Virus record (IMG/VR): IMGVR_UViG_2541047944_000002
Span: 1 to 44,087 of that record
Source: a virus
Taxonomy: Duplodnaviria > Heunggongvirae > Uroviricota > Caudoviricetes
Direction: 5' to 3' (one strand)
DNA length: 44,087 bases
Part shown: positions 3,667 to 37,704 of the stretch, piece after piece
Numbering within the stretch: the stretch's first letter is position 1
Layout of the letters: the number at the start of each line of letters is the position of its first letter
Notes under the pieces: model-generated
What the model was told of the DNA's origin: nothing
What the model saw: the letters and a program-made list of their open reading frames with translations, nothing else
Databases searched by the model: none
Program-made: the position numbers and the translations under genes

Positions 3667-6600
3667 TCAGATGCTCAGTGCTTCAAGACGACGAAGATCA
3701 AAGTCGTTTAATTCGTCGGTATAACTTTCGGTAATCGGTGCTGGCCAGTTGTTTGTCTCCAGCGCTTCGTTTATCTGGTGTAGCGTCCGGCGATATTCCT
3801 GTCGACCAAGTTCAAGGAGTTCCTGCGAGGCTTCCACGACTGCCACCCAGTGATAGCCAGCATCTTTGTTGACGAAGATCCAGAAAAATTTGTCCAGGTT
3901 TGCCACATCGCAATACATTGCGGCGCTGAGGTGATAATCACGCTCAATAATTTCACGGTGCAGGCGATCTTTAAGTCGTTCCTGCCGCACATAACCGAGG
4001 CTGACTGACTTCACGTCAGCGCAAATGCTTTCGTATGGCAGCCGGATTTCGATATCAGGACGGACCCTGATTTCCAGCCCGGTTTCTTCATCAAACCCGA
4101 AATAGCTGATTTCAGATTTGCGATCCGGGTGGTTGAGTAGCCTTGCTGCATCGGTATTGTTTTGCAGTGCCGCGTGAATATTTTTTGCCTGTTCATACAT
4201 ATCCGGACTGATAAACGTTTTCCCGGCGTTTTCTTCTTGCTGGCGTTTTTGCCAGTCCTCCAGTGTCACCAGTTCCGGGCGAATTTTCCGTGCGATTTCG
4301 GTTAATTGCTCTTTTGTGCCACTGATGTTGTAAGGCAAAGATTTAGCACGTTCTTTTTTTGCCAGTTCTGGATCTACAGTTTCAATTTGATCCAGAAGCT
4401 GCTCCCGTGCTCCACTGGTTTTCAACAGAGGAGGGAGGCTTGCGTTGTATTCTTTAATACAGGCTTTCATTGCTGATGCTGTGTGTTTTTCCCCCTCAGG
4501 AATACGCCGAAATTCCACCGGAAGCGAACCGTAAAGGATGCCTGTTTCTTCGGCCCCAGCACTTACAGACAGTGGCTGTATAAGAGTGCTGTTGTAGCTT
4601 TCGATCCACTCTTTCATCTGCTCTGGTGTCATCAGTGCTGGCAGACTGGCATTGTGTTTTTTAATGATGGCGATCAGTTCGTTAGAAGTAGTAACCACAT
4701 ATTCAGGAACCGGTACCGGAATGGCATATTCATCAGCGAATTTATCCGTTTCCAGAACATAGCTGTGAATGATCCGCCCACGCAGCAGTGCATCACTTTC
4801 CTCGTTCGGAATAGTTCCGGCAATGTGCCGCCCGTGGTAATACATCAGGCTGATACGGGCATCCTTCAGCATCGTGCTGCTTATTCCGTTGGCGGAGTGA
4901 TAAACCTCGTTCGGGAGGTTTTCATAGCGGCCTGGCTCGAAATATGACGGCCACATGATTTCAGTTGCTACAGGAGCTGACGCTTCGCCAGTTTCATCAC
5001 TGCAATTGCGATGCGGATCGCTGTCAGCATTCTCATTGTGCGGATGTTCAGCGCCTTCCATTTTCTCCGGCTCATTTTCCCGAACTTCAACCTGATTCTC
5101 GTCATCGAATGTTTCCTGATATGTTGCGTCGCCCATCACCGCACCACAGTCAGGGCAGTTATCCCCGCCAGACTGACCGCAGGCATTGCAAACTTTTTCC
5201 ACTTCCTGTTGCGCCACTGGTTCAGGCTGTTTCGTTTCTGGCTCGTTTTGTAACGCATTTGGGCTGTTTTGTTCCGCTTTCTGGTCGTTCTGTTCCGATT
5301 CTTGTTGGTTCTGGTTCACTGAATCGCGGGTTTCAATCCCCTTCACCCATTTCGGATCATTCGGGTCGCTAATCCCCTCAACAAATTCTCCGCGAGAGGC
5401 AGCCAGCAATTTGTCGGCATCGACAGGATTTTTGGGCGGAATGGTTTTCCGGGCTTCATGAAGTTCTGCCCGCAGTTTCTGATATTTCGCATCAACAGAA
5501 TTTACCTGTGACTGAGCATCCAGCGGCTGCGTGTCCTGATGATGTTCAGTTGCATCCGGTTCCACTGTTTCAGCCGTTGCCTGTTCATCTGCCATTGCGC
5601 AAGATGGTTGCGGTTTTTCTTCATCATCCTGTTTTTCTTCTTCTGTTACCCGCTGCGGCATCGGGGCAGAGGAGCGACCGCAGGCAATATCCACGATTTC
5701 CGGATCAGGGTTGGCATGATCGGTTTCAGTCAGTACTTTGTTCAGATATTCAGTGACGTGTGCGGGGATAACCTCGATCCCAATTGGTGCTTCTTTTACG
5801 GACGCAACCACGATGGCGCGGGAATAATCCAGCCCGCCAGGCATGGCGATGAATTTGTCGCGGAAAACAGAAAAGGGCGGTTTATTTTCAGCGATAATTT
5901 CCTCGACACGTTTAGCGTGTGCCGGATGAAGGTTATAAATGTCCACGTCCATTGAACGGGCCAGTACGCCAGTGGCTACATCGCGTGCCAGTGACGTCAG
6001 ATCGTGGACGAAACCTTCGCCGCGATCGGTGAGGTTCCCGCCGCCAGCATTAGCACCGGAAGCCGTGCGAGTGATGCGTGAAACACGATTTCCTTTCATC
6101 CACTCTTTTGTCAGCAGACCGCGATCGGTGTAGTCTGCGTCCAGGTATGCTTCGAAAAAAGCAGTCATCAGCCCCAGACTTGAATTGCCTGGATTAGGGA
6201 AAACTTTGTCAGTATCACGAACCAGTCTGTGAAGATCGCGAATCTCCAGCAGGTCGAGCAGGCTGGTTTTGTGGGAAACAGCCAGGGCAGTAACAGCTGG
6301 TAGTTCTTCAGCCCGTGCAATATGTAATGTCTGGAGTTCGTCGCGTGAAACGTGCGTTACCGGTTTTTCGCTGCCGTGTTGAGCAAGCCAGCGAATGGGC
6401 AGCTCTTGGCCAGAAATCGGGAGTAGCATATTCTCCTCAATCTCAGTCATGTCTTCGCCATTAACATTGGTATTGTCAGTGCTGGCTGGTTTGTCCTGCG
6501 CAGAGGATGAGGGCGCGATAAATACCATTGTGATGCCATCTTCCCCGCCTTTTTCGTAACGGTTGCAGAATTCCGTATCAAATACGCCTTCTGGTGGAAG

Positions 6601-8537: not shown

Positions 8538-8748
8538 CTGAATGTCTTCCCAACCAACGACGTGCGCCAGCTTCGGTTTTAAACGTTTTGCTTTTGGTAT
8601 ACGTCATGGCGGTGAATGTGCCGTCCTGATTGGGAAACACGCCACATACCAGAGATTCGTTGTTGCCAAGATCGATAGTATCCATGTTGACCTCATTTCC
8701 CCTTAACGCCGGGTGGCGGAACGTTTTATCTACTGCGCTTTGTATCAA
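8530..8748 (-). CDS. Hypothetical small protein (Rac YdaG-like position)
   Basis: Small ORF overlapping the previous one by 8 nt on the same strand. Confidence 0.4.
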   Translation of the reverse strand: MIQSAVDKTFRHPALRGNEVNMDTIDLGNNESLVCGVFPNQDGTFTAMTYTKSKTFKTEAGARRWLGRHSGE

Positions 8749-8937
8749 TCAACAACTGCCGTCATGTTCGTATGCCTCAGGCTGGCTACTTAGCCCTGTT
8801 CAGTGGCTGGATAACTCGAGGTATTGTCCTGCCGTTCTCTGGTGGGGCGTTGTTTGGATATGCTTATTAAACACAATGCGTTTTCTTATGTCAACACGAA
8901 ATGTGTTTTGCGGTGAGTGTCATATGATGATGGTACA

Positions 8938-8963
8938 AAAAAGCCCGCTGATAGCGGGCTGAT
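8938..8963 (-). terminator. Intrinsic terminator downstream of the repressor gene
   Basis: Minus strand reads agcccgc-tatca-gcgggct followed by tttttt. Confidence 0.55.
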
Positions 8964-8990
8964 TGGCATATTACTGTGATAGCAAGATCA

Positions 8991-9410
8991 TTACTCCGGT
9001 GGGGGATTATCTTTAAGCCTGCCTCTCAAATATTTTTCTACATACTCATCGATTTCTTTTAGCCGGACTTCAAATAGCTCAATCATTCGTTGTTGTTCTG
9101 AGCCCGGTAGCTGGTTAAACAACTCAAGAAGTTTTCGTTGGGATTCATTTAACCACAATTCAGAAGATTCCTGTTCTCCAAAGAGGAGCTCAGGGGGAGA
9201 TATGCCAAGTGCCTTTCCCAATACGACAGCGTCATGCACTCCAACATTTCTGCTGCCCGCCTCATAGTTACCTATACGCGATTGCGTCCATCCGCAGATT
9301 TCAGCAAGTTTTCCTTGAGATAAACCAAGCTTCTGCCTGCGCTCTTTAAGACGCATTGCAATTTTGTCATTGAGCCTACTAGCGGCAATTTTTTCGTTTT
9401 CTTTTTCCAT
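8991..9410 (-). CDS. Phage repressor, HTH XRE family (cI/RacR-like)
   Basis: HTH motif (LGLSQGKLAEICGWTQSRIGNYE); divergent from a Cro-like gene across an operator-bearing intergenic region. Confidence 0.8.
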   Translation of the reverse strand: MEKENEKIAASRLNDKIAMRLKERRQKLGLSQGKLAEICGWTQSRIGNYEAGSRNVGVHDAVVLGKALGISPPELLFGEQESSELWLNESQRKLLELFNQLPGSEQQRMIELFEVRLKEIDEYVEKYLRGRLKDNPPPE

Positions 9411-9421
9411 TGCATCCTTGT

Positions 9422-9488
9422 ATCACGAATCGTGATTTACATAAAACACAAAACAGCTTGACCATATAACACAAGGTGTGTTTAAAAT
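9422..9488. promoter_or_regulatory. Immunity-region operators and rightward early promoter
   Basis: 15-bp perfect palindrome atcacgaatcgtgat (9422..9436); second palindrome aacacaa-g-gtgtgtt (9468..9482) overlapping a TTGACC (9458..9463) / TAAAAT promoter. Confidence 0.5.
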
Positions 9489-9506
9489 TGTCATCGGAGG
9501 TTTTCA

Positions 9507-9749
9507 ATGAACAAAATTTCAACATATCGAAAACAGCTTGGGTTGTCTCAAAGACAACTCGCTGTTCAGTTAGGGTGGATACAAAGCCGACTGGCAAATT
9601 ACGAAGCAAATTTTCGTACCCCAGGACTAGAGGAGTGCAGAAAAATTGTTTCTACCCTTAATCGGCTTGGCGCTCATTGTGGACTTGACGATGTATTCCC
9701 CCCAGACGGTAAGCATAGCGAAAACAGCATAGGAGCGGTTGATTCATGA
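9507..9749 (+). CDS. Cro-like HTH regulator (YdaS-like)
   Basis: HTH motif (LGLSQRQLAVQLGWIQSRLANYE); GGAGG RBS; divergent from repressor. Confidence 0.7.
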   Translation: MNKISTYRKQLGLSQRQLAVQLGWIQSRLANYEANFRTPGLEECRKIVSTLNRLGAHCGLDDVFPPDGKHSENSIGAVDS

Positions 9750-10168
9750 AAATCAGGCATGAGCACATCGAATCAGTGCTGTTAGCCCTGGCAGCCGAAA
9801 AAGGGCAGGCGTGGGTCGCTAACGCAATTACTGAAGAATATCTCCGCCAGGGGGGAGGTGAATTGTCTCTGACACCAGGCAAGGACTGGAACAATCAGCA
9901 GAATATCTATCACCGTTGGTTGAAAGGTGAAACGAAAGCGCAAAGGGAAAAAATTCAGAAACTGATCCCTGCGGTTCTGGCAATTCTTCCGCGCGAGCTG
10001 CGTCACCGACTCTGCATCTTCGATACCCTGGAACGCCGTGCATTACTGGCGGCGCAGGAAGCGTTGAGTACGGCAATTGATGCGCATGATGATGCAGTCC
10101 AGGCCGTTTACCGGAAAGCACATTTCAGCGGTGGTGGGTCGCCCGGCGATTCTGTCGTAGTGCATTGA
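9746..10168 (+). CDS. YdaT-like protein (cII-position regulator / putative toxin family)
   Basis: 140-aa ORF translationally coupled to the Cro-like gene (ATGA overlap); recalled similarity to Rac YdaT. Confidence 0.55.
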   Translation: MKIRHEHIESVLLALAAEKGQAWVANAITEEYLRQGGGELSLTPGKDWNNQQNIYHRWLKGETKAQREKIQKLIPAVLAILPRELRHRLCIFDTLERRALLAAQEALSTAIDAHDDAVQAVYRKAHFSGGGSPGDSVVVH

Positions 10169-11809: not shown

Positions 11810-12571
11810 ATGGAGACTGTTTTTGACGCACTGAAAGCGATGGGAAAAGCCACGTCGGTAGAGCTGGCTGCGCGACTTGATATCAGTCGTGAAGAAGTAC
11901 TGAACGAGCTGTGGGAACTGAAAAAGGCTGGCTTCGTTGATAAAAGCGTATACACCTGGCGTGTGGCTGATAACAACGTTCAGCAGGAACAGCCAGCGCC
12001 AGAAGAACAGCCGGAAGAAACCACCACGGCGACAGTAGCGAAAATCTCAGAGTGCGATTTAACCGCGACGATTGAACAACGCGGACCACAAACGGCGGAT
12101 GAACTGGCTACGCTGTTCGGTACAACATCCCGCAAAGTGGCTTCAACGCTGGCAATGGCAATCAGCAAAGGTCGTCTGATTCGCGTAAATCAGGGCGGTA
12201 AATTTCGTTACTGCATACCGGGCGATAATTTACCAGCAGAGCCGAAAGCTGCATCGGTAGCGGAAACTGATGGTAAAGCCTTTCCTCAGCCTGCATGTGT
12301 TGCGTTACCAGTACAGGAGGCTGCAACACAGGAAGATATTAAAACAGAAACTGTGGCGGACATTGTGCAGTCGCTGCCATCGTTCACCGAAACGCGAGCG
12401 GATGACCTGATTTTACCATCGCTGCATATGGCAAACCGCGAACTGCGTCGGGCGAAAAGTCATGTCCAGAAGTGGGCGCGAGTCTGCGCCGCGCTGCGGG
12501 AGCTGAACAAGCACCGGGATATTGTTCGACAGATTACTGATTCTTCCCGCCGTGTTGTATCGGAAAAGTGA
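11810..12571 (+). CDS. Hypothetical protein with winged-helix-like repeats
   Basis: ORF from internal Met with GGGAGG RBS ([13 protein letters not shown]...); two related segments ([26 protein letters not shown] / [27 protein letters not shown]). Confidence 0.5.
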
Positions 12572-12586
12572 TTGCCGGAGGCACTT

Positions 12587-13009
12587 ATGGCAAAAGTATT
12601 TACACAAGAAGAGCGGGAAAAAATTAAAGGGCAGGTTGTTGAGCTAGTACGCCGGAGTGGGCGCGAGACGTTACGGCAACTGGAAGCCAAGACAGGTGCG
12701 ACAAGATATCTGATGAGCGTTCTCGCCAGAGAGCTTGTTGCCAGTGGCGATGTATATAACTCCGGCTACGGGTTATTCCCGTCAGAACAGGCTCGTAAGG
12801 ACTGGCAAAATGCCCGCAAAAAACTATCCAGGGCAAAGGTGAAGAAACCATCTGTGGTTGATCCTGACCTTATCTGGTCATTACCTGACGGAGAAATACG
12901 TCGCTACGACAGGAGTATGAACATAATCTGTCACGAGTGCCGGAAGAGTGAGGTTATGCAGCGTGTACTGGCTTTCTATCAGGGTAATTTTCAGGAGGCG
13001 GTACTGTGA
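12587..13009 (+). CDS. Hypothetical protein
   Basis: ORF with GGAGG RBS; no recognisable family. Confidence 0.5.
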   Translation: MAKVFTQEEREKIKGQVVELVRRSGRETLRQLEAKTGATRYLMSVLARELVASGDVYNSGYGLFPSEQARKDWQNARKKLSRAKVKKPSVVDPDLIWSLPDGEIRRYDRSMNIICHECRKSEVMQRVLAFYQGNFQEAVL

Positions 13010-13066
13010 GTGAAATTAGCTATCAGGCTTCAATTACCGCTGGCATTCGCATCAAAGGAGAGGAGC

Positions 13067-13423
13067 ATGGAAATAAAACCAGAAGATGAGTTAAGCAATA
13101 TCGTTTTATTTCCGGTAAAAGAGGATGACCCTCGTAATCAGGTTAATTTTCTTTATGAGCCATCGGAAAGACCATATTGCCATCACGCTTCTGTCCGGGT
13201 TGACGAAAAAGAGCGTCAGGTCCGCTGTAAAATCTGCGGTGCAGTTGTGGAGCCATTTGACTGGATGCTCTCTGTGGCGAAAAGAGAAACCAGACTGGCA
13301 GATGATGTAAGGCTATTGCGCCAGGAGGAACAGGAAAGACGGAAAAATATAGAAAAGTTAATTCAGATTGAGCGTAACGCGAAAGCGCGGATACGCAGGG
13401 TGACAAAATCCAGAACTGAATAA
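13067..13423 (+). CDS. Hypothetical protein with CxxC...CxxC zinc-ribbon-like motif
   Basis: ATG 5 nt after the conserved junction motif; CHHASVRV...CKICGAV. Confidence 0.5.
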   Translation: MEIKPEDELSNIVLFPVKEDDPRNQVNFLYEPSERPYCHHASVRVDEKERQVRCKICGAVVEPFDWMLSVAKRETRLADDVRLLRQEEQERRKNIEKLIQIERNAKARIRRVTKSRTE

Positions 13424-13518
13424 TTAAATTTAGCACTGTTAAAAATTCGATCCTTAACCGGAGGGATTTCTGCACCCTCAGAACATCAGGAGGCCGCCCG
13501 AAAGGGCGGTAACAAATA

Positions 13519-13995
13519 ATGCAAGAAATCAAAGAAAATATCAGGCAACAGCTTTACGGGTTTTATATTGCTTATGATTTGTGGCTGAAGAACGGGGCGA
13601 AACCCGGCGGAGTGTTTTCTCAAAATTATGGTTTATGCGCCAATCTTTTCGATTATCTCACATTAATTGGTACCCCCTGTGAGGCAGCGCTGGAGCAATT
13701 ACACGCTGATTTCAGAAGTGCCGGGCTGAATGAGGCGTTGCCGTTTAACGAGGGTAAAGAGCATTACCATGAAGAAAGAGGGCACAACATGTGCCATATG
13801 AATCCGGCACGAGTGGCGTGGGTCAGGGCGCAGACAGGGCAGCCAGCGCCGGAAGGACTGATTAAAGCGGTGCGTTTTTATGAGCAGGTAAAACGTGAGA
13901 ACCCGCCAGTCGAAACAGGAGCATGGAAAGACGCTGTTGACTGGGTGCTCAAAGAGGCTTGCCAGGCTGTAAACATTCGCATCAAAGGAGAGTGA
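13519..13995 (+). CDS. Hypothetical protein
   Basis: 158-aa ORF; unusual SD-hairpin-AUG leader; ends in IRIKGE encoded by the junction motif. Confidence 0.55.
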   Translation: MQEIKENIRQQLYGFYIAYDLWLKNGAKPGGVFSQNYGLCANLFDYLTLIGTPCEAALEQLHADFRSAGLNEALPFNEGKEHYHEERGHNMCHMNPARVAWVRAQTGQPAPEGLIKAVRFYEQVKRENPPVETGAWKDAVDWVLKEACQAVNIRIKGE

Positions 13996-13996
13996 G

Positions 13997-14489
13997 AATG
14001 CAAATTTCACCGGTTACTCTTCGTGTTGCGAAGGCGTTTATATCCAGACATCACCGACACAATAAACCCCCGGTGGGGCATAAATTCAGCATTGGTCTGA
14101 GAAATGATGCCGGAGAATTGATAGGTGTGGCGACAGCCGGTCGACCTGTTGCACGACATTTGGACGATGGATTAACGCTTGAAGTAAATCGCACATGTAC
14201 CACAGGAGAACGCAACGCTAACAGCGCGCTTTATGGTGCTGTCTGGCGGGCAGCAAAGGCTATGGGTTATCAACGTTGTATTACGTACACCCAGGCAGAT
14301 GAATCAGGAGCATCTCTTCGCGCAGCTGGTTTTGTTCGTGTGAAAGAGCTTCCTCCAAGAAAAAGCTGGGCGGAATCAAGCGTCGCCCTGCGGAGTAAAC
14401 GCGATCCGGTCGGAAACGGTGGTGTTCCTCGTGTGCTCTGGGAAATCAGGAGAATGAGTACCACTGGCATTCGCATCAAAGGAGAGTGA
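13997..14489 (+). CDS. Hypothetical protein, possibly GNAT-like acyltransferase fold
   Basis: ATG after junction motif; C-terminal half has a GNAT-like pattern (ALYGAVWRAAKAMGYQRCITYTQADESGASLRAAGFVRV). Weak, from memory. Confidence 0.45.
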
Positions 14490-14490
14490 T

Positions 14491-14754
14491 ATGGCAACTT
14501 TGACAAAAAAGGAACAGGCATGGTTGAGCGAATTACAGAACGTTCTTGATCGCTGCCCGTCACCGAAAAAAATTGGTTTTTACACCATTGGCGATAAAAA
14601 CATTTACCTGTATGACCTACGCCGCATGGATGAAATCATGGAGGCTCTTGATAATCGTTCGTCAATGGATTGGTGTGTTGCTGTCCATGATATGAATGCC
14701 GGATTTGAAGAAAAGATTTTGTTCCCCTCATCAGTTGAAAGCACTGCGGGTTAA
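14491..14754 (+). CDS. Hypothetical protein
   Basis: 87-aa ORF directly after the third junction-motif copy. Confidence 0.5.
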   Translation: MATLTKKEQAWLSELQNVLDRCPSPKKIGFYTIGDKNIYLYDLRRMDEIMEALDNRSSMDWCVAVHDMNAGFEEKILFPSSVESTAG

Positions 14755-15669: not shown

Positions 15670-15784
15670 AAACGGTTTGCGGGAAAAGGAGAGTTAAGTA
15701 GAATTGCTGCGGGTGCTTGAGGCTATCTGCCTCAGGCATGAACACCAAAAGGCAGATAGAGAAAAGCCCCAGTTAACATTACGC

Positions 15785-15850
15785 GTCCGGCAAGACGCTT
15801 AACATTAATCTGAGGCTCAATCTATGAACGGCAAATCTAGGTTAGCCTCT
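15785..15850 (-). ncRNA. sok: Putative Sok-like antisense RNA (approximate coordinates)
   Basis: Inferred from hok/mok organisation: antisense partner expected opposite the mok start/SD region; candidate minus-strand TTGCCT-17-TAACCT promoter just right of it. Not directly verifiable by eye. Confidence 0.3.
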
Positions 15851-16036
15851 TACGCGCCGAAAGGCAAGGAGAAGCAGGCTATGAAGCAGCAAAAGGCGAT
15901 GTTAGTCGCCCTGATCGTCATCTGTATTACCGTCATAGTGACGGCACTGGTAACGAGGAAAGACCTCTGCGAGGTACGAATCCGAACCGGCCAGACGGAG
16001 GTCGCTGTCTTCACAGCTTACGAACCTGAGGAGTAA
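15824..16036 (+). CDS. mok: Mok-like in-frame leader ORF of the hok locus
   Basis: 70-codon ORF sharing frame and stop with hok, as for mokC/hokC in K-12 (recalled). Confidence 0.5.
   Translation: MNGKSRLASYAPKGKEKQAMKQQKAMLVALIVICITVIVTALVTRKDLCEVRIRTGQTEVAVFTAYEPEE
15881..16036 (+). CDS. hok: Hok/Gef-family type I toxin
   Basis: MKQQKAMLVALIVICITVIVTALVTRKDLCEVRIRTGQTEVAVFTAYEPEE: 51 aa, single TM helix, near match to recalled HokC/Gef. Confidence 0.8.
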   Translation: MKQQKAMLVALIVICITVIVTALVTRKDLCEVRIRTGQTEVAVFTAYEPEE

Positions 16037-18036: not shown

Positions 18037-18062
18037 CTCAATCTGTTATCCGGGGCTATATT
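18033..18062 (+). promoter_or_regulatory. Late promoter PR-prime (TTGACT-18-TATATT) with qut-like leader
   Basis: -35 TTGACT overlaps the Q stop codon; -10 TATATT 18 bp downstream; two hairpins in the leader. Confidence 0.5.
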
Positions 18063-18124
18063 CCTCACGCGCCAGCAAAATCTGGCGTCGGGATTGGCGT
18101 CCCGGATGTTTACGGAGCGATATG

Positions 18125-18146
18125 AGACGCGCCCGCGTCTTTTTTC
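18125..18146 (+). terminator. tR-prime-like intrinsic terminator
   Basis: agacgcg-cc-cgcgtct followed by tttttt, about 65 nt downstream of the promoter. Confidence 0.55.
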
Positions 18147-18308
18147 ATATCGTTTGCACAGTCACATTCGCGATTTATGGCGGGCTGTGTGGGGGAGCCG
18201 AAAGGCTCGCCGGTTTCCGTACCCGGTTACGCCAACCCTGCACAGTTCGCCACCAGTTCGATTGGCGTCGTCGGTGGCGATAATTTCCAAATGTACGGAG
18301 TTATCGTT

Positions 18309-36951: not shown

Positions 36952-37704
36952 ATGCCCGTTTCTTTAAGCGCTCAACTTGGTAGCAAAGAACAGGCCGATG
37001 TAAGACTTGCTGGCTCTGTCATGTCGGCGCTGCGTGTTTCTATGCCCGGCATCGTCCAGTCATTTGATCCGGACACGGTAACAGTGGTTGTTCAACCTGC
37101 GATTAAAGGCTATGAGCCGGACTCAAATGGAATCAACCAGTCGACGACATTACCCCTGCTGGTGGATGTGCCAGTGGTATTTCCGCGCGGCGGAGGCTGT
37201 ACGTTGACTTTTCCGGTAAAAGCCGGTGATGAATGTTTGGTGATTTTTGCCGATCGTTGTATTGATTTCTGGTGGCAGAGCGGCGGGATACAGGAGCCTG
37301 TCGATGACAGAATGCATGATTTATCGGATGCGTTTTGTATTGTCGGTCCCCAGTCGCAGGCAAGGAAGATTAGCGGTATTAATACCAGTGCCACACAGTT
37401 GCGTAGTGATGACGGCAGCACCTATTTTGAGCTTAATCCTGATACCAGGAAAATTAAAATTGTCGCTCCGGGGGGGCTTGATGTGGTTGCCCCCCTGGCT
37501 GATTTTTCTGAGAAAGTAACCATTCATGGCCTGTTAACCTGGATGGGGGGCATGGTGGGGTCTGTTGTTTCTGGTGTGGCTTCAAAAATCACTGGTGCTG
37601 TTGAGTTTTTGGGTAGCGTGAATGCTAACGGCAAGCCAATCGATGATACGCACACTCATGGCGGTGTTCAGTGCGGTGGAAGCAATACCGATGGGGTAAA
37701 CTGA
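36952..37704 (+). CDS. Baseplate spike/assembly protein (P2 gpV / Mu gp45-like)
   Basis: Position and size in the Mu-like baseplate block. Confidence 0.55.
   Translation: MPVSLSAQLGSKEQADVRLAGSVMSALRVSMPGIVQSFDPDTVTVVVQPAIKGYEPDSNGINQSTTLPLLVDVPVVFPRGGGCTLTFPVKAGDECLVIFADRCIDFWWQSGGIQEPVDDRMHDLSDAFCIVGPQSQARKISGINTSATQLRSDDGSTYFELNPDTRKIKIVAPGGLDVVAPLADFSEKVTIHGLLTWMGGMVGSVVSGVASKITGAVEFLGSVNANGKPIDDTHTHGGVQCGGSNTDGVN

Follow-up and report, generated by a model that had tools for sequence, protein, structure and literature searches.

A conserved Shine-Dalgarno-hairpin cassette in lambdoid prophages of Escherichia coli as a probable portable split ribosome-binding site

The stretch of DNA analysed in this study (the window, 44,087 nt at its full length; IMG/VR record IMGVR_UViG_2541047944_000002) is a Rac-like lambdoid prophage that lies between yebY and pphA, at the ryeA/sdsR locus. 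This report concerns a short element at one of its gene junctions, in which a Shine-Dalgarno (SD) sequence is separated from the next start codon by a GC-rich hairpin. In the annotation of a near-identical genome, the gene order begins with int, xis, ralR, recT, recE, kilR, the repressor gene, a cro-like gene, ydaT and ydaU, continues with a ydaV-like gene, DUF1627, DUF977 and a Zn-ribbon gene, followed by the site itself, a gene of 158 amino acids (aa) and an XF1762/Mom-like gene, and ends with hokD, nin-like genes, a Q-like gene and the lysis and structural genes. By this gene order, the site falls within the early-right polycistronic operon, after the replication module and before the nin-like region. 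The features at the site, in window coordinates, are as follows.

13010-13423, + strand: upstream gene for a Zn-ribbon-like hypothetical protein, phrog_1621 (open reading frame (ORF) list, Pfam and PHROGs scans)
13415-13449, + strand: AT-rich 5' part of the conserved cassette, which holds TGAATAATTAA
13451-13456, + strand: UCCUUA, anti-SD-like element 1 (RNAalifold and single-sequence minimum free energy (MFE) folds)
13460-13465, + strand: GGAGGG, SD-like sequence further upstream, not followed by a usable start codon
13475-13479, + strand: CCCUC, anti-SD-like element 2 (pair probabilities)
13488-13493, + strand: SD sequence AGGAGG, with the GGAG core at 13489-13492 (sequence read)
13494-13499, 13500-13503 and 13504-13509, + strand: hairpin of CCGCCC, GAAA and GGGCGG, with six G-C pairs and a GNRA tetraloop
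13510-13518, + strand: A/U-rich spacer of 9 nt, TAACAAATA (UAACAAAUA as RNA), without an SD
13519-13521, + strand: start codon ATG, which opens the 158-aa ORF
13519-13995, + strand: downstream gene, 158 aa, phrog_26213/6418/2510 (ORF list, PGAP, PHROGs)

Our analysis suggests that AGGAGG and the hairpin probably form a split, or 'accommodated', ribosome-binding site that is bridged by the hairpin, that is portable and that is very widespread in E. coli prophages. The initial annotation had described AGGAGG, a perfect 6-bp GC stem with a GAAA loop and an ATG at 13519, at a linear distance of 25 nt, and all of these coordinates are confirmed by reading the sequence. The distance from the SD to the ATG shrinks from 25 nt to 9 nt when the 16-nt hairpin is looped out. 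The site thus has the anatomy of a split site, with an SD over 15 nt ahead of the start codon (25 nt here and 22-27 nt in the family), a stem-loop wholly between the two, a folded spacing of about 5-11 nt and, in the sequence examined, no other plausible start codon or SD for the 158-aa gene. A seventh pair, G13493-U13510, is possible at the base of the hairpin. The ATG at 13519 is the first start downstream of an in-frame TAA at 13510-13512, and PGAP, the NCBI annotation pipeline, picks the identical start in CE0021a, a 99.8% identical genome. The PHROGs profile alignment of the 158-aa gene runs from residue 6 on, and its C-terminus is common to Ead/DUF551-type proteins. By fold prediction, the hairpin alone has a free energy of -12.4 kcal/mol and a pairing probability of about 1.0 (at least 0.99) in the ensemble of a 137-nt context. 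The spacer is predicted to be unpaired with a probability of 0.58 at 13510 and of about 1.0 at the remaining eight positions. In the AUG, the A is predicted to be unpaired, and the U and G are mostly paired with upstream sequence (unpaired probabilities of 0.25 and 0.00).

Taken alone, a perfect 6-bp GC stem closed by a tetraloop is no rarity: the window contains four per strand, where about 2.2 would be expected on both strands. What is rare is the combined pattern, defined as a strong SD just 5' of the hairpin, an ATG 4-12 nt past the hairpin and an ORF at least 50 aa long; first-order Markov simulations of the window produced it in only three of 100 runs (mean 0.04). The exact 22-mer occurs a single time in the window. 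The strongest argument against a chance origin is the conservation described below. A second, loose match to the split-SD pattern lies among tail and baseplate genes at 37298-37320, with AGGAG, a 5-bp stem (CCTGT/ACAGA), a 3-nt loop and an ATG 5 nt further on that opens a 67-aa ORF; it is not recurrent in related loci and is probably spurious. No recurrent SD-hairpin-ATG units with other stems were found in about 2 Mb of related prophage DNA.

The initial annotation had treated the element as a feature of one gene, a view that needs to be replaced, for the SD and hairpin form a portable unit inside a widespread and conserved intergenic cassette. This cassette of about 97 nt (13415-13511) begins with CTGAATAATTAA, made up of the upstream gene's final two codons and its stop, and ends with GGGCGGTA; BLAST alignments with other prophages start at the stop codon of the upstream gene and end at the start codon. 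With a 68-nt core (13448-13515) as the query against 5426 complete E. coli genomes, the cassette core was detected in 2636 genomes, at 4667 places and up to seven times per genome; in 2498 of 2650 records the identity was at least 95%. The cassette is also carried by more than 119 IMG/VR viral contigs per anchor and by cultured phages, mEp460 and Rac-SA53 among them. Within the species-representative genomes, its occurrence is limited to Shigella, Citrobacter and one E. coli-like (contaminant-like) contig. A scan of species-representative contigs with a 22-nt core pattern gave no match, and the ten remaining matches of a second contig scan consisted of an in-frame coding match in a WOR-3 metagenome-assembled genome (L222) and nine longer stems from unrelated phyla.

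The genes on both sides of the cassette differ from prophage to prophage. Upstream of it lie at least four unrelated long gene families, all ending in frame at an identical GAA-TAA, and there are also contexts with short ORFs only. The last codons of the upstream gene, ...ACT GAA TAA, are already inside the conserved cassette; because the four long families share GAA and the TAA at 13421-13423, the upstream junction falls within the last two codons. The sequence TGAATAATTAA (13417-13427) contains stops in all three frames, but the long upstream genes use only the TAA at 13421-13423, after GAA (Glu), so a 'three-frame stop' function of this sequence is probably incidental. Downstream of the cassette, at least seven unrelated gene families with an ATG or GTG start are found, including a 60-aa MRKFK protein (DUF7167), two DUF4014 types, an Ead/DUF551-like family, the 158-aa gene, a Q-like antiterminator and a 43-aa ORF. 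The junction to the downstream gene is located in the spacer at 13510-13518.

Such a mosaic could mean that the cassette is a recombination linker and nothing else, that is, DNA-level homology for module exchange in which the SD-hairpin-ATG geometry is inherited without any special role in translation. The different genes on each side favour this explanation, as do copies that are 95-100% identical and breakpoints concentrated precisely at the hairpin's 3' end, among them that of a moron insertion described below. It is also favoured by a second junction type in the same operon, ATCAAAGGAGAGTGAnATG, which shows a general reuse of junction sequences. We consider this explanation unlikely, and a role as a linker is in any case compatible with a split ribosome-binding site. 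What argues against a linker alone is the pattern of conservation and the spacing.

To describe the conservation, we used an unbiased sample of 119 cassettes fetched with an anchor at 13451-13468, so that neither the SD nor the hairpin was ascertained. The GGAG core is invariant in 119 of the 119 copies, with variation restricted to its flanks (AGGAGA in 15 copies, CGGAGG in three and AGGAGT in two, besides GGGAGG in the minimal context described below). The hairpin is fully paired, with G-U pairs counted, in 111 of the 119 copies (93%), and 96% of the cells in the stem alignment are paired. Minor alleles by position number 0, 0, 6, 20, 1 and 16 in the 5' arm (sum 43) and 2, 0, 0, 2, 2 and 0 in the 3' arm (sum 6). 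The common stem variants are C-to-U changes (CCGUCC, CCGCCU and CCGUCU) at frequencies of 13-17%, which keep G-U pairs in the RNA of the + strand and would give A-C mismatches on the minus strand, whereas disruptive changes in the 3' arm are rare (at most 2%). One haplotype carries a compensated change from G-C to A-U, CCACCC/GGGTGG, beside uncompensated relatives. Among 47 contigs with the same upstream gene, nucleotide diversity (pi) in the stem is 0.057 against 0.052 at synonymous sites, with pairing maintained, while pi in the 5' core (13450-13474) is 0.008, below that at codon positions 1 and 2 (0.014). The AT-rich 5' part at 13415-13449 is more variable than the core (pi of 0.033). In the unbiased sample, CCCUC has a pi of 0.017 against 0.092 at the adjacent variable positions 13480-13487. 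Conservation is therefore uneven, with GGAG, CCCUC and the 3' arm near-invariant and with 13480-13487, position 13469 (T/C) and the AT-rich linker variable, and the stem changes are biased to keep G-U pairs on the + strand RNA, both of which argue against a role in recombination alone.

The spacing gives a further line of evidence. In all families with a gene following, the start codon lies 6, 7, 8, 9 or 11 nt past the hairpin, at a linear distance of 22-27 nt from the SD. The spacers differ from one another (TAAGAA, TAGTTAA, TAGTGAA, AACAGATA, TAACAAATA, TAATGAAAA and TGGAGATAATA), and the only one with an SD of its own (GGAG) is TGGAGATAATA, before the Q-like gene. Spacers that differ in sequence and yet all measure 6-11 nt argue for repeated selection on spacing rather than for descent. 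Homologues of the DUF4014 and Ead-like genes without the hairpin have a canonical SD 5-8 nt from the start, for example in GGGAGTGATATG, AAGGAGAGTGATGTG, TAAGGAGTAACACATG, AAATGGGAGTGATATG and AAAGGAGAGTGATGTG. In addition, about 35 instances of a minimal unit of 26 nt, TC(A/G)GGAGG-CCGCCCGAAAGGGCGG-TA, lack the 5' two-thirds of the cassette and stand alone, 4 nt past the TAA that ends a 55-aa gene and 6 nt ahead of a DUF4014 start; in contigs L016, L036, L060 and L065, this minimal unit is accompanied by the full cassette about 1.06 kb downstream. Because the minimal unit occurs without the 5' cassette, the SD and hairpin travel jointly and independently of the rest, which again is not what a linker alone would explain. 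In the minimal context, cofolding predicts that the 16S tail pairs with the SD directly beside the intact hairpin. These results strengthen the suggestion in the initial annotation of a hairpin-bridged SD like that of T4 gene 38, in that the invariant GGAG, the paired stems, the spacing, the canonical SDs of hairpin-less homologues and the T4-like geometry all support it, while covariation does not.

Upstream of the SD, the full cassette carries sequences that mimic either the SD or its partner in the ribosome. UCCUUA (13451-13456) is identical to the 3' end of 16S rRNA and can pair with the AGGA of the SD or with GGAGGGAU. GGAGGG (13460-13465) forms a duplex of -12.2 kcal/mol with the 16S tail and can pair with CCCUC (13475-13479). 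In the 137-nt context, a 4-bp CCUC:GAGG helix is predicted to stack on the hairpin, with pair probabilities of 0.56-0.82. In the RNAalifold consensus and in the 77-nt MFE fold (z of -2.7), the SD instead has UCCU (13451-13454) as its partner, with GAGGG:CCCUC nested within. The predicted cost of freeing the SD is about 3-5.6 kcal/mol, and the minimal unit has none of these upstream pairing partners. On these predictions, GGAGGG may be a decoy or standby site, and the upstream elements suggest a putative initiation region of an auto-inhibited or standby type. Degenerate cassettes are found in decayed prophages full of the insertion sequences IS1, IS3 and IS5, such as L001 (strain AH21) at 2501-2598, similar 4.7-Mb genomes and Shigella flexneri L218. 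In these copies GGATGG replaces GGAGGG, and the MRKFK gene of AH21 has an internal stop, a situation consistent with relaxed selection on the upstream SD-like element after gene death.

Several observations weigh against a split ribosome-binding site. The stem is mismatched in eight of the 119 copies. Covariation is not significant, as the observed score is equalled or exceeded in 221 of 500 shuffles and a double change is seen at a single pair; the signal is weak because the copies are young and about 94% identical, and this outcome would also fit a sequence maintained for recombination only. The conservation itself could partly reflect recent spread by recombination. When the full cassette is cofolded, the free anti-SD prefers the upstream GGAGGG over the SD, and for the SD itself folding predicts about 80% pairing with CCUC at 13476-13479. 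The A/U-rich unstructured spacer could alone support initiation without an SD. Finally, in contigs L145, L171 and Citrobacter L219, a convergent insert ('moron') directly follows the hairpin and no start codon comes after it, which shows that the hairpin can persist without a downstream gene. In these loci (L145, about 11918-12762; L171, about 8611-10094; L219 of Citrobacter braakii, 696-1250), the insert replaces the downstream gene and begins exactly at the 3' end of the hairpin; it encodes a 184-aa AT-rich membrane protein (MNKINVLGVII...), with a second convergent ORF in L145 and L171. The hairpin loop at these loci is AAAA in the E. coli-like L145 and L171, and GAAA is kept in Citrobacter L219.

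The folding predictions bear on the possibility that translation starts independently of the SD, with the A/U-rich unstructured stretch being bound by ribosomal protein S1, the hairpin acting as an insulator and AGGAGG being irrelevant or a distant standby site. The predicted unpaired state of the spacer and of the A of the AUG, the predicted sequestration of most of the SD and the preference of the 16S tail for GGAGGG would all suit such a start, and local lack of structure can suffice for initiation (PMC3121790). This possibility appears doubtful to us, since it does not predict that the GGAG abutting the hairpin is invariant in all 119 copies and is kept in the minimal unit, nor that the same genes use canonical SDs where the hairpin is absent. 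The window of 6-11 nt past the hairpin, in contrast, is what an SD-dependent mechanism predicts.

The moron loci bear on another possibility, namely that the hairpin is an element of RNA 3' ends, RNA stability or transcription, such as a signal for pausing or termination, or a block to 3' exonucleases at the end of the replication-gene segment, with the adjacent SD being incidental. The persistence of the hairpin before a convergent gene pair without a start codon agrees with this, as does the fact that ordinary intrinsic terminators of unrelated phyla have an identical 21-mer as their 5' half; nine matches from such phyla are longer stems, and about eight of these have the downstream T-run typical of an intrinsic terminator. 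However, the + strand continues with TAACAAATAATG and the - strand with CCTCCTGATG, so that no U-tract follows on either strand (GGGCGGTAACAAATAATG), and a terminator scan gave no match at the site; we have therefore rejected an intrinsic terminator. The unrelated terminators pair GGAGG with a downstream CCTCY and have a T-run, both of which are absent here. This possibility would also leave the invariant SD core and the fixed distance to the start unexplained, and we regard it as improbable.

The hairpin loop itself might be recognised by a protein. In such a scheme, the GNRA hairpin and GGA motifs would be bound by a factor, as in a nut/boxB-like antitermination hairpin, a translational-repressor site or a CsrA site. 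One loop variant, in which GAAA becomes GGCA, retains GNRA through a double change, and three GGA motifs are present. The sequence UCCUUAAC resembles the rrn boxA core. At 35 nt upstream of the hairpin, this boxA-like sequence misses the expected distance of about 8-13 nt, and nut sites occupy pR/pL-proximal positions, from which the present site is remote. A lambdoid nut site was rejected because there is no YGCTCTTWA on the plus strand upstream of the hairpin and because the site comes after the replication genes; this boxA consensus has four matches in the window, all away from the hairpin, the nearest being downstream at 13755-13763 on the minus strand. At the site, no Rfam family matched at its gathering score, and what appeared at E-values up to 10 was only noise of at most 16.7 bits. 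The GGA motifs lie outside hairpin loops, and we know of no binding protein for this hairpin. Together these points make a factor-binding RNA very improbable.

Other identities were also considered and rejected. A sigma-70 promoter in the AT-rich part found no support, with no scan match and a candidate -10 that is not conserved among variants. For a small upstream ORF or leader peptide, no ATG, GTG or TTG is present at 13450-13509, and frames from ATT or CTG enter the variable spacers and have stops that are inconsistent across variants. A function of the minus strand is not compatible with the common C-to-T changes in the 5' arm, which give A-C mismatches there, and the minus-strand ORF at 13143-13532 overlaps the variable flanks. 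By eye, the consensus of an integration host factor site fits one variant only. Kinship with twister ribozymes was considered on account of their shared stem sequence and of hairpin-anchor matches in three unrelated gut-phage contigs; it was rejected, as the site here has no Rfam match to these ribozymes. In contig L194 of this group, the CGCCC-GAAA-GGGCG stem lies inside a type-P5 twister match at 2210-2264 (RF02684, 46-58 bits), with two copies about 290 nt apart (the other at 2499-2555); in L186 (7392-7446, minus strand) and L195 (5741-5809, minus strand), the twister-P5 matches are elsewhere on the contig than the hairpin-anchor matches.

We therefore return to a split ribosome-binding site as the explanation that we favour and propose the following mechanism. 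The GNRA-capped GC hairpin would fold co-transcriptionally on the early-right mRNA, essentially always, and thereby loop out 16 nt. The SD:anti-SD duplex would then form flush with the base of the hairpin, and the A/U-rich unstructured spacer of 6-11 nt (9 nt here) would set the AUG in the P site, in place of the linear 22-27 nt. In this way the 30S subunit could start translation of the downstream gene, for which no separate SD exists. We infer from the invariant core, the maintained pairing and the constrained spacing that the ribosome uses this SD and that the hairpin is required for it. The cassette would also serve as a homologous linker, so that unrelated genes swapped in behind it would be expressed at once. 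In the full cassette, UCCU (13451-13454), CCUC (13476-13479) and the decoy GGAGGG would probably hold the SD in weak 4-bp helices, damping or conditioning initiation. The initial annotation had also raised a regulatory switch, and what supports this part of its proposal is predictive, consisting of the roughly 80% pairing of the SD with the upstream CCUC in folding.

If the site functions in this way, it would be by far the most widespread natural hairpin-bridged SD, with thousands of copies in about half of the complete E. coli genomes, and it would show that a split site can act as a portable part before unrelated genes. Gene-start prediction would be affected as well, since SD models based on spacing would score such starts as lacking an SD. 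The site would further bear on how mosaic junctions of lambdoid phages keep newly joined genes expressed, could offer synthetic biology a compact natural insulator ribosome-binding site, and its SD/anti-SD mimic arrangement makes a testable candidate for translational control of genes after the prophage replication module. We speculate that the whole cassette of about 97 nt might even be a self-contained mobile 'gene-junction module' that unites a hairpin-bridged SD with a stop signal and with a ribosome-binding site kept auto-inhibited by a decoy SD and by two mimics of the 16S 3' end. Such a module would serve both as a conditional translational switch, for example a temperature-, standby- or factor-dependent one, for the first gene past the replication module and as a homologous linker driving gene shuffling in the prophages of about half of E. 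coli; that all of these parts hold together seems rather unlikely to us.

Other features of the prophage are of interest in their own right. A second conserved junction type, CATTCGCATCAAAGGAGAGTGA(n)ATG, occurs in the same operon at 13975-14000 and 14469-14493. Two consecutive genes there end in ...IRIKGE*, with an SD AAGGAG within the last codons and a stop 0-2 nt before the next ATG, and this junction also precedes DUF4014 homologues without the hairpin. It fits the idea that these prophages reuse translation-initiation junctions as recombination joints. Rfam matches in the window include RalA, sok and isrK/C4. The RalA antitoxin RNA lies beside ralR, the sok RNA lies beside a hok-family ORF at 15824-16036, and the isrK and C4-antisense/a1b1 cluster is upstream of the late region. 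The SraC/RyeA and SdsR/RyeB RNAs mark the insertion locus (462-606, 2168-2346, 15711-16036 and 18056-18257 of the window are the RNA context regions).

A full-text literature search for the hairpin sequence found no paper, and the small RNAs reported from prophages of enterohaemorrhagic E. coli are at a different site, downstream of PR'. Several known systems can nevertheless be compared with the cassette. Like intrinsic terminators in unrelated bacteria, it contains the identical 21-mer GGAGGCCGCCCGAAAGGGCGG; there a longer stem, in which GGAGG pairs with CCTCY, precedes a T-run, whereas the cassette has neither and leads to an ATG. With the lambda-type nut boxB it shares a short GC stem, a GNRA-type loop and a place on an early phage transcript, but its loop is a true tetraloop rather than a pentaloop, no boxA is found at the proper distance, and it is positioned after the replication genes and abuts an SD and a start codon. 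It resembles RNA thermometers (ROSE/fourU) and the inhibitory translation initiation regions of T4 e, soc and 49 in having short pyrimidine tracts (UCCU and CCUC) that are predicted to pair weakly with the SD. It differs from thermometers in showing no conserved thermometer architecture or Rfam match, in that its pairings are predicted ones and in that the minimal unit does without them.

Conserved 'linker' sequences at module junctions of lambdoid phages are reportedly part of the modular theory of Susskind and Botstein and of the mosaic boundaries in HK97, HK022 and HK620, and the cassette is like them in being a short conserved sequence at gene boundaries, with unrelated genes on both sides and breakpoints at gene ends. 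To our knowledge, most described lambdoid junctions have no conserved linker. The cassette differs from such linkers in that its roughly 97 nt make up an entire, structured intergenic region whose pattern of conservation points to a function at the level of RNA.

The closest counterparts are found in phage T4. Hairpin-bridged SD sites are a textbook curiosity, documented in the literature consulted essentially from two T4 genes. In T4 gene 38, an intervening structure cuts the spacing between SD and AUG from 22 to 5 nt (PMC3014915). In T4 gene 25, the spacing falls from 27 to 11 nt and the stem is conserved among close T-even phages (PMC3014915). Destabilising mutations lower initiation in both genes (PMC3014915, reviewing Nivinskas et al. 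1999; Malys & Nivinskas 2009). The site described here is similar to both: the SD stands 22-27 nt ahead of the AUG, the interval between the two holds an entire stem-loop of about 16-17 nt, the folded spacing is 5-11 nt, and the stem appears to be conserved among close relatives. The sequences are unrelated, however, and the present site belongs to temperate lambdoid prophages of E. coli rather than to T-even phages and carries an attached SD/anti-SD mimic arrangement. Whereas the T4 site is tied to one gene junction, the prophage site is portable and stands before at least seven unrelated genes in thousands of prophages.

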